A stretch of DNA of 64,000 nt from an uncultured cyanobacterium (GTDB lineage: Bacteria > Cyanobacteriota > Cyanobacteriia > PCC-9006 > JAAUQQ01), in contig OY970368.1 in NCBI GenBank assembly GCA_963718615.1, positions 4,480,001 to 4,544,000 of the forward strand, read 5' to 3'. The position numbers were made by a program, and so were the translations under genes. Shown here piece after piece: positions 25,039 to 34,465 of this stretch. The notes under the pieces are model-generated. The model did not search any database and had not been told where the DNA came from. It saw only the letters and a list, made by a program, of their open reading frames with translations. How positions within the stretch are numbered: the stretch's first letter is position 1; every line of letters starts with the position of its first letter.

Positions 25039-25740
25039 GTGTTTATGCTTTCGCTGGAAATCAATCCGACGCTGGATTATCACAGTTCGTCCTACCAAGA
25101 GGCCTATGGTCGGGTCAATGCCCTGGTCATTGAGGGTGAGCAAGAGGCATCCCACAACTATCGTCAAATGGCTCAGATGATGCCCGAGCACCAAGACCGA
25201 CTGTTGGCCCTGGCCAAGATGGAGCGACGGCACCAGCGCAGCTTTCTAAGCTGCGGCAGGCATCTGGGCATCAAACCGGATTTAGCCTTTGCGCAACAGT
25301 CCTTTGAAGGATTACGCCATAACTTCGATGTGGCCAGTGCCCAGGGCGCGTTGGTGGATTGTTTGCTGATTCAGTCGCTGGTGATCGAGTGTTTTGCGAT
25401 CGCCACCTGTCACGCCTACATCCCCGTCGCTGACGACTTTGCCCGTAAGCTCACCGAAAGCGTCCTGCGAGACGAATATAAACACCTCAATTTTGGCAAG
25501 ACCTGGCTCCAGAGTCATTTTAAGACCATCAAGTCCGACCTAGAAAGCGCCAACCGCCAAAATTTGCCCCTGATGTGGCAAATTCTCGATCGCCTCAAAC
25601 CCGATGCCGCTGTCATTGGCATCGACCCCGAAGCCCTGGAAGAAGATTTTACGATTCAGTACGGTGAAGCCCTCGAAGAAATTGGCTTTGGCTTCCGAGA
25701 AGTTGCCTGCATGTCCGATCCTCACGGATGGGCCGCCTAG
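25039..25740 (+). CDS. ado: Aldehyde-deformylating oxygenase homolog (ferritin-like di-iron), divergent
   Basis: LDY..SSYQEAYGRVNALVIEGEQEA, LAKMERRH, CLLIQSLVIECFAIA, YIPVADDFARKLTE, DEYKHLNFG, NRQNLPL, YGEALEEIGF. Collinear with cyanobacterial ADO; RBS AAGGAG upstream. Confidence 0.93.
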   Translation: MFMLSLEINPTLDYHSSSYQEAYGRVNALVIEGEQEASHNYRQMAQMMPEHQDRLLALAKMERRHQRSFLSCGRHLGIKPDLAFAQQSFEGLRHNFDVASAQGALVDCLLIQSLVIECFAIATCHAYIPVADDFARKLTESVLRDEYKHLNFGKTWLQSHFKTIKSDLESANRQNLPLMWQILDRLKPDAAVIGIDPEALEEDFTIQYGEALEEIGFGFREVACMSDPHGWAA

Positions 25741-25927
25741 GATTGAGGGTTTGCTCAGCCACCGATCTAGGGAATTGGAGATAGCCATCGCCCTGTCTGG
25801 GACGCTTCCCTTAGCCCTTTTCCGCTGCCCTTTCCTGGGCGTAACGTCGCGCGTAGGTCAGACAGTATGATGAGGTGTCAGTCTTCATAAATAATTCAGA
25901 CTTCTCAAGAAGTTGCAAAATTGGTAG

Positions 25928-31900: not shown

Positions 31901-34465
31901 AAACTCCAGGGCAGTTGGAATTTGCATCAAGCGACCCAGGAGGATCCACTAGATTTCTTTTTGCTGTTTTCCTCCGTGGCTTCGCTTCTGGGATCGCCCG
32001 GACAGGGCAACTATGCCGCAGCTAACGCGTTTTTAGATGCGATCGCCCAAACCCGCCGTGCCCAAGGCCAAACCGCCCTCAGCCTCAATTGGGGACCTTG
32101 GGCTGATACAGGCATGGCCCAGCAAACCCGCTTAAATCGGGGCTTCGAACCCCTGCCTCCCACCCTCAACCTGGCTCGACTCCCGCAACTTATGGCCTTG
32201 CCAACGGCCCAAGTGGGACTGTTTCAAGCGAACTGGAACTTGCTCAGTCAACTCTTCCCTCAGCTTCGAGACCGGGCCTATTTCTCGGCAGTTTTTCCAA
32301 ACAAATCAGCCGACTTACAACAGACCTCAGCGATCGCCCAATCCCCAATAAAGTCCCCAATATTAGAACAGTTGCGGACAACCACCTCCGAACAACGACC
32401 GCTGCTGATTCAAGACTATTTGCGCGGGGCGATCGCCCATATCCTCCAAACCGATCGCGATCAGATCGCCCCCACCGCCAGTCTGCTCGACCTCGGCATG
32501 GACTCGCTGATGATCATGGAAGCGATTAACCAGCTCAAACAAGATCTGCAACTCATGCTCTACCCCCGCGAGTTCTACGAACGCCCTCGGTTAGATGCCC
32601 TCGCCCAGTACTTAGCCGTAGAGTTTGAGAAAAACCAAGGACTTACCCCAGACTCTGTTGAAACCACACCCCTCCCCTCCATCACCCCATCACCCCATCA
32701 CCCCATCACCCCACCCCGTCCTGCCCCCGCCCAAAAGCTCCCCCCCGTCGCCTTCATCCTCTCCAGCCCCCGCTCCGGCTCCACACTCCTGCGGGTCATG
32801 TTGGCGGGTAACCCGGCCCTATTCTCTCCCCCCGAGTTGCATCTACTTCCCTTTGAGACCCTGGGTGAACGTCGCCAAAGCTTGGGGGTTTCTCACCTAG
32901 GTGAAGGGTTACAACGGGCGATCATGGACCTGAAAGGGCTGGATGCGGAGGCCAGTCGGGCCTTAATTCAAGACCTCGAAAATCGGGACGCCCCCCTGGA
33001 AGAAGTCTATGGGTTGCTGCAAGAACTGGCGGGCGATCGCCTCCTCGTCGATAAATCCCCCAGCTACGCCAGTGATCCCGCGAACCTGATCCGGGCCGAA
33101 CGCATTATCGAAGGCGCAAAATACATTCACCTCGTCCGTCACCCCTACGCCGTCCTCGAATCCTTCTGTCGCATGCGTATGGACAAGCTGGTGGGTGATG
33201 GTCGTCAGTCGCCCTTGGATCTGGCCGAGCAAATCTGGTGCGCCAGCAACAAAAATACCCTAGACTTCTTTGACCAGCTTGACCCCCATCAGCACTATTT
33301 AGTTCAATACGAAGATCTGGTGCGCGATCCCGAGGCCGTCCTGCGCCCCCTGTGCGATTTCCTGGGCGTGCCCTTTGCGGAGGCAATGTTGAATCCCTAC
33401 AGTGGCGATCGCATGACCGACGGCATCCATCGCCAATCCCTGTCCCTGGGTGATCCCAACTTCCTCCAACGGCAGCAGGTTGATGCCAGCCTTGCTGACC
33501 AGTGGCGCACCATCGAGCTCCCCCGATTGCTTCAGCCCCAGAGTCAGTTCTTAGCTCAGCAACTCAACTACGAGCTCCCCCAGGAAGCCTTGGCTCGGGC
33601 AGCGGCACCGAGCTCAATCCCCATGACCGAACGCTTTATCAACGTGCGTGGGCTCAATCTTTGCCTTTGCACCTGGGGGCCAGAGTCGGGACCGCTGGTG
33701 GTCTGCCTCCACGGCATTTTGGAGCAGGGGGCCTCTTGGCTAGAGGTGGCCATGCGGTTGGCGGAGAAGGGATATCAGATCGTTGCACCGGATTTCCGAG
33801 GCCATGGGCGATCGCCCCACGCTGAGCGGGGAAGTGCCTACAACTTGATGGACTTCCTAGCCGATCTAGACGGCATTGTCGAACGCCTGACGGATAAACC
33901 CTTTACGCTCGTGGGCCATTCCCTAGGATCAGTTGTCGGGGCCATTTTTGCCAGTATTCGCCCCCATCGGATCCGCAATTTGGTTCTGGTAGAAACCATT
34001 TTACCGACGGAGAGTGATGACAATGAAACCGCCGATCAGTTGGTGACACACCTCAATTACTTAGCCTCCCCACCGGAACATCCCGTTTTCCCTGATGTTG
34101 CCACTGCCGCCGAACGCCTGCGTTTAGGCACCCCGGCCTTGTCCGAAGCCCTTGCCCTACGCCTCGCGGAGCGGATTACCGAGCCCTGTCCGGGGGGCGT
34201 GCGCTGGCGCTGGGCACCGCTGCTGCGAACCCGAGCGGGGATTGGCTTCAATGGCATTACCAAGTCTCGCTATCTAGGCTTGCTGCGCCGGATTCAGACG
34301 CCGATTACGTTGGTGTATGGCGATCGCAGCCAGTTCAATCGTCAATCCGATCTCCAAGCCCAACAGGAAGCCCTCGCCCATGCTAAACGGGTGATTGTTT
34401 CCGGCGGCCATAATCTGCCCATCGACGCACCTTCGGCCCTGGTAGAGGTGATTTTATCGTCCTAA
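25928..34465 (+). CDS. ols: Olefin synthase, modular type I PKS: FAAL-ACP-KS-AT-KR-ACP-sulfotransferase-thioesterase
   Basis: [52 protein letters not shown] with HAFHS (malonyl type); [43 protein letters not shown]. This is the CurM-like terminal-alkene architecture of Ols. Confidence 0.95.
32679..32710 (+). repeat. Tandem octamer (CCATCACC)x4 in the ACP2-ST linker of ols
   Basis: Four exact copies read directly. Confidence 0.85.

Follow-up and report, generated by a model that had tools for sequence, protein, structure and literature searches.

We describe here a hydrocarbon locus in a stretch of 64,000 nucleotides (referred to as the window) of an uncultured cyanobacterium (GenBank assembly GCA_963718615.1, contig OY970368.1, positions 4,480,001-4,544,000), in which a gene for a divergent homolog of aldehyde-deformylating oxygenase (ADO) lies directly upstream of the gene for a complete olefin synthase (Ols). 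The genome does not contain acyl-ACP reductase (AAR), and the same gene pair could be identified in four related genomes. Comparison with sister genomes indicates with high confidence that ols, together with a gene of the DUF6208 family, took the place of aar, and as an account of the whole locus we favor, on balance, an in-place displacement of aar by ols with retention of the ADO-like protein as an AAR-independent aldehyde deformylase. Our data provide a conserved, selected and divergent ADO lineage tied to Ols and a locus-level view of pathway replacement, both of which are new.

Identification of the ado-like/ols locus

The window belongs to a genome assembled as one contig of 6,095,823 bp with a completeness of 100 (G000 in our data set). 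The first-pass annotation had described an ado homolog followed by an intact polyketide synthase, and this arrangement was confirmed: two open reading frames (ORFs) occupy positions 25039-25740 and 25928-34465 of the plus strand and are separated by 187 bp. The product of the first ORF matched TIGR04059 (Ald_deCOase) with 309.6 bits (cut-off 222.65) over profile positions 1-215 of 220 and PF11266 with an E-value of 3.5e-92, and its best solved relatives were ADO structures (5k53_A, E 6.8e-85; 6jzu_B, E 1.7e-83). ATG 25045 is a likelier start than GTG 25039 of the ORF list, because a Shine-Dalgarno-like AAAGGAG, read directly from the sequence at 25027-25033 (plus strand), precedes it by 11 nt and because the 231-aa form is present in a public protein collection. 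The orphan ADO-like gene (ado-like) is therefore placed at 25045-25740 (plus strand); its assignment also draws on six iron ligands, on its clade in the ADO tree and on its omega value, which are described below.

The second ORF (25928-34465, plus strand) encodes an olefin synthase of 2845 aa in a single frame without internal stops. The Pfam domains follow one another in the order AMP-binding, PP-binding, KS (N- and C-terminal parts), AT, KR, PP-binding, Sulfotransfer_3 and alpha/beta hydrolase, that is, FAAL-ACP-KS-AT-KR-ACP-ST-TE. Two DSL serines and the motifs DTACSSS, GHSVGE, PRSGST and GHSLGS are present in the translation, which we take to mark the carrier, KS, AT, ST (sulfotransferase) and TE (thioesterase) domains, respectively.

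It had been noted before that no aar is present in the 64 kb. This holds for the complete genome, in which the AAR profile TIGR04058 gave no match at E<=0.001 and a tblastn search with the AAR of a sister genome from the same family gave a best E-value of only 0.14. The same genome contains exactly one ADO, so that no second copy accompanies the one at this locus. With AAR absent anywhere in the complete genome, the idea of a dual-pathway organism, which had been offered as one interpretation, is not supported.

Occurrence of the pair in relatives and the replaced slot

To date we have searched 41 genomes, namely G000 and 40 relatives; eight of them (G000-G007) make up the family of the window (f1), in which G001 and G003 belong to genus g2, and G004 and G007 to genus g3. 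Canonical ADOs scored 395-424 bits on TIGR04059, and a separate low class of 270-309 bits was found in G000, G001, G003, G004 and G007, all of them members of f1. No real AAR could be identified in these five genomes, the sole match being one of 19 bits in G007, and the ST-TE region of Ols is present in all of them, with 71-77% identity to that of the window (63-64% for the Ols of G001 and G007 compared with the window Ols, whose ST-TE part is 74% identical). The other members of the family, G002, G005 and G006, have a canonical ADO beside AAR and are without Ols. A search for the same adjacency elsewhere, which had been proposed earlier, was successful: ado-like and ols adjoin on one contig in G001, G003 and G007, and in G004 the contig runs from ado-like into ols and ends after 906 aligned residues of its N-terminal part.

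The gene order around the pair is informative. In the canonical genomes of the family (G002, G005 and G006), SDR, accA, aar, ado and creatininase-family genes lie in this order on one strand and face genes for S1, Tab2-like and CN-hydrolase proteins. The order in G007 is SDR-accA-DUF6208-ols-ado-like-creatininase, again facing the S1, Tab2 and CN-hydrolase genes; G001 has creatininase, ado-like, ols, a 260-aa ORF, DUF6208 and accA, and ols of G004 is followed by DUF6208, accA and SDR. In the window, the genes upstream of ado-like encode an S1-domain RNA-binding protein (23899-24873, minus strand, divergent from ado; PF00575) and a Tab2-like RNA-binding protein (22540-23451, minus strand; PF06485 and PF20429), both of which are conserved flanks of the hydrocarbon locus in the family. 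Orthologs of Tab2 adjoin the locus in G001, G003 and G007 as well as in the canonical G002, G005 and G006, and the window S1 gene is 69-77% identical to the S1 genes beside ado-like (G001, G003 and G007) and beside canonical ado (G002, G005 and G006). Since the corresponding position in sister genomes is taken by ado-aar, with matching genes on either side, ols and DUF6208 very probably displaced aar in situ within a creatininase-ado-aar-accA-SDR locus. The first-pass annotation had considered a pathway replacement caught in progress. The replacement itself is borne out by the presence of ols and DUF6208 in the aar slot, but it can hardly be in progress, given five genomes from three genera, near-saturated synonymous divergence and purifying selection.

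The copy of the locus in the window was broken downstream of ols at a later stage. Where relatives have DUF6208-accA-SDR, positions 34579-35791 contain a Uma2-family gene and IS1 transposase/InsA fragments (identified by Pfam; IS, insertion sequence), and the DUF6208 and accA genes of this genome are located 2.3 Mb (C1:2148686-2149591, within C1:2148608-2149627, minus strand) and 2.8 Mb (C1:1689308-1690273) from the locus. Small pieces of mobile or defence type surround the locus at 23525-23803 (minus strand), 34579-35013 (plus strand), 35019-35791 (minus strand) and 37025-37825 (minus strand); they comprise a 92-aa ORF with a XisH-like start and a XisI-like end, the Uma2-family gene, the IS1 transposase/InsA fragments and a Fic-domain gene, and their presence accompanies the breakdown of synteny downstream of ols. 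Other insertions were seen between ols and DUF6208 in genus g2: the gene for a 498-aa protein whose methyltransferase domain is of the cyclopropane-fatty-acid-synthase type in G003 (L016:1835-3331, minus strand), and in G001 the 260-aa ORF mentioned above, which has no Pfam match (L014:16889-17671, plus strand).

Descent of the Ols-linked ADOs and selection

In a maximum likelihood (ML) tree of 21 ADOs, whose bootstrap values had not converged completely, the five Ols-linked ADOs formed one clade (support 100/98), and the family's own canonical ADOs were its sister group (90/92). The stem of this clade had a length of 0.65 and the terminal branch of the window protein one of 0.54, compared with a median of 0.1 for canonical terminal branches. 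Canonical ADOs of different families share 75-84% identity with one another, whereas Ols-linked ADOs are only 48-58% identical to canonical ones; mutual identity among the four Ols-linked ADOs other than that of the window is 64-76%. In all likelihood, judging from this tree, the Ols-linked ADO descends from the family's own canonical ADO. Second, divergent ADO paralogs were observed in two other genomes, G008 (C2:14498-15154, L020; 226 bits) and G018 (C10:287747-288403, L021; 348 bits); both genomes also have a canonical ADO and AAR, and the paralogs are long separate branches outside the Ols-linked clade.

Within the clade, genus g3 (G004 and G007) grouped with g2 (G001 and G003) to the exclusion of G000 (100/99), whereas for S1 and Tab2 G000 is nearer to g2 (75-78% identity) than g3 is to g2 (54-69%). 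Moreover, the flanks of G007 and G002 are nearly identical (93-98% protein identity; dS 0.39 for S1 and 0.50 for Tab2), whereas the ADOs of the same two genomes share 50% identity; their creatininases are 75% identical, compared with 82% between G007 and G001. This conflict of groupings and the near identity of the G007 and G002 flanks indicate that a block from creatininase through ado-like and ols to DUF6208 was swapped by recombination within the family, in one direction or the other. The GC content at third codon positions is alike for ado-like (0.638), ols (0.628), S1 (0.643) and Tab2 (0.678) and neither dates nor directs the transfer.

The ADO-like ORFs are intact and of canonical length in all five Ols-linked genomes. 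Pairwise ratios of nonsynonymous to synonymous changes (dN/dS), estimated by the Nei-Gojobori method (NG86), ranged from 0.10 to 0.23 in nine of the ten pairs, the tenth (G000-G007) being undefined with dS saturated, and are to be taken as rough since dS was near saturation in most pairs (pS 0.61-0.77). Pairs that include the window gave 0.17-0.23 where defined. Between genera, the corresponding values were 0.11-0.15 for S1, 0.07-0.22 for Tab2 and 0.08-0.10 for Ols, and those of S1 and Tab2 in the close pair G007-G002 were 0.026-0.027. With a codon model (GY+F3X4), the ML omega was 0.124 for the five Ols-linked ADOs vs 0.057 for ten canonical ones. By these estimates, ado-like is under purifying selection that is about half as strong as that on canonical ADOs, and a neutral relic is therefore excluded. 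A neutral dN/dS, which according to the first-pass annotation would have reduced the gene to a relic, is thus not what we observed.

Residues kept and changed in the Ols-linked ADOs

The Ols-linked ADOs were compared with a set of 96 canonical ADOs, of which 13 came from relatives and 83 from loci of a pattern scan of species' genomes, selected for their similarity to the query. At least 90% conservation within the canonical set was observed at 143 of 231 positions; 64 of these are unchanged in all five Ols-linked ADOs and 43 are changed in at least four of them, whereas the window protein alone is changed at 39. The di-iron ligands of ADO are E32, E60, H63, E115, E144 and H147 (Se numbering), arranged in two EX(28-29)EX2H motifs (PMC4286721; PMC9743570). 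None of these ligands is lost in any of the five Ols-linked ADOs, that of the window included, and R62, Q110, Y39, Y21, Y125, G31, A118 and F87 are likewise retained in five of five. Mutation of R62 and Q110 is reported to lower activity (PMC5356278), Y21 and Y125 are described as a lid pair (PMC4286721), and G31, A118 and F87 are placed at the aldehyde end of the tunnel (PMC5007808).

Further from the head group the picture is different. PMC5007808 lists 17 conserved hydrophobic residues of the channel, and at six of them (I24V/L, I27, F86S/V, F117L, A121T/L and V184L/I/M) four or all five of the Ols-linked ADOs differ. Ten of the 17 are retained in the window protein, which has I24V, I27L, F86S, A121T, Y122C, V184L and M193I, of which Y122C occurs only here and M193I is common to the window and G003. 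The changed residues line the middle and the far end of the tunnel, and the head-group end is kept. According to PMC5007808, bulkier residues at positions 121 and 184 shifted the preference to chains of C12 or shorter.

The surface on which AAR docks has been assigned to E196, E200, D201, E208 and E211 of helix 7 and to R218 and M221 of helix 8 (PMC7089970). E200 and E208 are present in all five Ols-linked ADOs, E196 and E211 in four, and position 201 is acidic in all five. The window protein keeps the five helix-7 acids and R218 and has A in place of M221; in the other four, R218 is replaced by Q or D and M221 by S, L or Y. The acidic surface of helix 7 is also reported to bind ferredoxin (PMC9743570).

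A search of G000 for other aldehyde suppliers with PF07993 gave two strong matches, one in a non-ribosomal peptide synthetase (NRPS) with a terminal reductase and one in a stand-alone protein of 481 aa. The latter is a thioester-reductase protein encoded at C1:587672-589114 (minus strand), with a PF07993 score of 245.9 bits and a hydrophobic C-terminus. It was considered as a dedicated partner of the ADO-like protein and dropped, as an ortholog (72% identity) is present only in G003 among seven family genomes.

The region upstream of ols

The spacer between ado-like and ols (25741-25927, plus strand) consists of two distinct parts. About 70 nt before the ols start (25861-25927, plus strand), which include a TATGAT at 25866-25871, are near-invariant in the five Ols genomes of the family, in which synonymous sites are almost saturated, and the remaining spacer could not be aligned. 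The conserved part was absent, by eye, upstream of the Ols gene of G017. Rfam gave no match on 24700-26100, and the predicted fold was weak (RNAalifold, -7.5 kcal/mol, one covarying pair). A promoter scan of 24700-26200 gave no promoter-like site; a terminator scan of the same region gave one site, inside the ado ORF (25333-25355), which is fewer than in shuffled sequences, and none in the spacer. No conservation was seen upstream of ado-like, and no element is common to ado and ols. The conserved region is probably a promoter and regulatory 5' leader belonging to ols itself.

Distribution of ADO, AAR and Ols among cyanobacteria

We then extended the analysis to a wider sample of 401 genomes of the class, in which ADO and AAR tables were cross-tabulated by hand and unlisted genomes were inferred from numbering gaps. 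ADO was found in 364 genomes and AAR in 363. Only six genomes had ADO without AAR: the five Ols-linked genomes of f1 and G095, which is 86% complete and has a partial ADO match (E 1.1e-61). The reverse, AAR without ADO, was seen in the 100% complete G360 and in four genomes that are fragmented or incomplete (G040, G142, G376 and G398). With a threshold of E<=1e-60, an ST-TE match was present in 34 genomes, 29 of which are outside f1. ADO was also found in three of the 29 (G175, G223 and G268), in each case canonical at 399-417 bits; their ST-TE matches are weak (35-43% identity, mostly in the ST part) and look like other CurM-type modules, so that these three were rejected as Ols genomes. The rule that Ols genomes are without both ADO and AAR is kept in 25 of the 26 other true Ols genomes, the exception being G360, which retains AAR. 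The genome of the window breaks this rule as well, with its one ADO homolog. Within still larger collections the ADO-like protein stands apart: a pattern scan of the genomes of 185,579 species gave only matches of <=59% identity, and a search of 5.8 billion proteins gave 1629 relatives at E<=1e-30, none of which exceeded 59% identity besides its own protein.

G360 (family f9, genus g109) is a mirror case, an Ols genome with an orphan AAR. It contains olsA, olsB, DUF6208, a fatty-acid-desaturase-like gene, a canonical AAR (637.5 bits), accA and SDR, and is without ADO. Its near relative G381 has ado-aar-accA-SDR, with flanks of 88-90% DNA identity; when L119 (G360:C11:38000-57900) is set against L131 (G381:C1:424000-443500), a segment of 12.3 kb with ols in G360 stands where G381 has 1.8 kb with ado. 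Judging from these gene orders, the losses are opposite: ols took out aar in f1 and ado in the G360 lineage. The 4.5-10 kb beyond DUF6208 were also examined in 11 further Ols genomes and contained neither accA nor AAR, ADO or SDR; as ols does not lie beside accA within this distance there, locus replacement is documented for f1 and G360 only.

DUF6208 (PF19713) was present in G000 and in all 30 other Ols genomes examined, and in none of 17 ADO/AAR genomes. Its gene is often directly downstream of ols (for example, L015:2438-3496, L014:17753-18760 and L119:13111-14043). The AlphaFold model, which is confident (pLDDT 87.3), comprises an N-terminal helix followed by mostly beta structure, and the best matches of the model among structures in the PDB were uncharacterized proteins with TM scores of 0.36-0.39, which offer no assignment of function. 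The family was not mentioned by name in the literature searched.

Interpretation of the locus

The favored account can be outlined as follows. The ancestral locus of the family would have comprised creatininase, ado, aar, accA and SDR genes facing S1 and Tab2, and an imported cassette of ols and DUF6208 would have displaced aar in place. Ols may now be the source of the main hydrocarbons, which its domain order predicts to be terminal alkenes made by fatty-acid loading, one malonyl extension (two carbons), ketoreduction, sulfonation and decarboxylative release. The retained ado, then without an aldehyde-supplying partner, would have evolved about twice as freely as canonical ADOs to give a distinct subfamily. 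Canonical ADO works with AAR and turns a Cn fatty aldehyde into a Cn-1 alkane and formate. In keeping with the chemistry of its family, the ADO-like protein would activate O2 at the di-iron center, take electrons from ferredoxin and cleave aldehydes, which may come from a source other than AAR and perhaps be of different chain length. It likely still deformylates aldehydes, because the metal ligands and head-group residues are intact and the distal tunnel is altered. Its present substrate and its role as an AAR-independent aldehyde-deformylating oxygenase are proposed only tentatively.

Several observations weigh against this account. The PF07993 matches of G000 gave no aldehyde source: one belongs to an NRPS, and for the other no counterpart was seen in the relatives except G003. 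The share of changed channel residues (6 of 17) is no higher than that of changed conserved positions overall (43 of 143), and a general relaxation of constraint might explain the changes as well as a new specificity would; the comparison set, partly chosen by similarity to the query, and the near-saturation of dS in most pairs, which makes the omega values rough, also have to be considered. The window protein is equidistant from the other four Ols-linked ADOs (55-58% identity) and from canonical ADOs (57-58%), and has extra changes at canonically invariant sites (Y122C, F86S and T105D). Together with its higher dN/dS, this would fit a weaker constraint in the G000 lineage. In addition, four of the five Ols-linked genomes are incomplete metagenome-assembled genomes (MAGs; 62-93%), G003 has its ols frame split over three ORFs, which may reflect either MAG errors or decay, and ado-like could travel with ols merely by lying between ols and the flanking homology.

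Instead of being retained for aldehydes, the orphan ADO might have gained a role in the olefin pathway or on a new substrate, with its divergence reflecting adaptation rather than relaxation; it could, for instance, oxidize or tailor a precursor or product of Ols, or act on another head group. The adjacency of ado-like and ols is kept in all five genomes, and the pair seems to have moved as one block into g3, given that g3 joins g2 in the ADO-like and Ols trees and G000 joins g2 for S1 and Tab2; however, linkage alone explains such a co-transfer, and ols has its own conserved upstream region with no element common with ado. The long stem (0.65) followed by purifying selection, and the replacement of canonically invariant tunnel residues in all or most members (A121T/L, V184L/I/M, F86S/V and F117L), would suit a new substrate, but around the head group the residues match an aldehyde deformylase. 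Similarly, the helix-7 acidic patch used for partner docking (PMC7089970) is largely kept, yet the patch is also reported to serve ferredoxin binding (PMC9743570). Considering further that the 26 other Ols genomes in the sample function without any ADO, that Ols has no aldehyde intermediate and that no chemistry was found linking an aldehyde oxygenase to Ols intermediates, we regard such a hybrid system as unlikely.

It is more improbable still that ado became non-functional once aar had been displaced and is a slowly decaying relic whose inactivation is pending. Although the gene evolves faster than canonical ADOs (omega 0.124 vs 0.057), has diverged to just 48-58% identity, has no partner that could be found and, in the window copy, is without Y122 and without M221, which contacts AAR, the ORF has stayed intact and of canonical length in all five genomes, which span three genera with near-saturated dS; omega lies far below 1, close to the values of neighboring housekeeping genes, and the six ligands and second-shell residues are kept in all five. 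An artefact of assembly or binning, joining an ADO contig to an Ols contig, deserves next to no credence. Nothing speaks for it except that the related genomes include four fragmented MAGs, and the window lies within a single complete contig of 6.1 Mb. Four further assemblies (G001, G003, G004 and G007) show this junction and, ahead of ols, the conserved 70 nt, and their shared adjacency makes a chimeric join very unlikely.

A broader and rather speculative proposal, to which we give limited credence, is that exclusivity in some lineages could reflect locus replacement and not physiological incompatibility: Ols cassettes would insert into the ado-aar operon and eliminate one of the two partners, leaving the other free to evolve on its own. 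The surviving ADO of this family could then represent a new AAR-independent di-iron oxygenase subfamily co-selected with Ols, for instance for a new class of substrate or product.

Implications and comparison with known systems

The survey of Coates et al. (2014; PMC3903477) covers 142 strains, none of which is described as having both pathways, and the Ols strains are described there as without ado or aar pseudogenes. The exclusivity of the two pathways is repeated in Knoot and Pakrasi (2019; PMC6361979), a 2023 review (PMC10114076) and a 2025 preprint (bioRxiv 10.1101/2025.10.24.684404). Strictly speaking, the present genome, which has no AAR, does not break the rule of never both pathways. 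Among the papers searched in full text, none reports ado-ols adjacency or an ADO homolog in a genome with Ols. The field asks what selective force separates the pathways, and natural intermediates such as this locus, its relatives and G360 suggest that exclusivity can arise by physical replacement. Closely related genomes that have either ado-aar or ado-like-ols-DUF6208 at one site are matched strains for testing exclusivity. ADO, which is of interest for biofuels, is notorious for its slow turnover, and an ADO clade that evolved without AAR helps to separate catalytic from partner constraints. Our results also highlight DUF6208 as an unstudied constant companion of Ols.

Compared with known systems, the ADO-like protein resembles canonical ADO (Synechococcus elongatus PCC 7942 orf1593, PDB 4RC5 and 6JZU; 5K53) in its iron ligands, the Y21-Y125 lid, R62, Q110, G31, A118, F87 and its chromosomal slot. 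On the other hand, canonical ado usually has aar directly downstream, whereas ols takes this position in the window and the genome is without AAR; canonical ADOs also score 395-426 bits vs 309 bits and share 75-84% mutual identity, vs 57-58% for the window protein. Second ADO paralogs have been described in five strains of AAR/ADO cyanobacteria (Coates et al., 2014; PMC3903477). Such paralogs, like those of G008 and G018, are likewise divergent with lower family scores, but they accompany a canonical ADO and AAR, whereas the ADO-like protein is the sole ADO of its genome and, by position, of canonical descent. Finally, the olefin synthase resembles that of Synechococcus sp. PCC 7002 (with a CurM-like terminal module) in its one-ORF domain order and in the presence of DUF6208 in the genome, and differs from it in that ols lies inside an ado-aar-accA locus after an ado homolog, has a family-specific leader of 70 nt, is separated from DUF6208 and accA and is followed by IS fragments.

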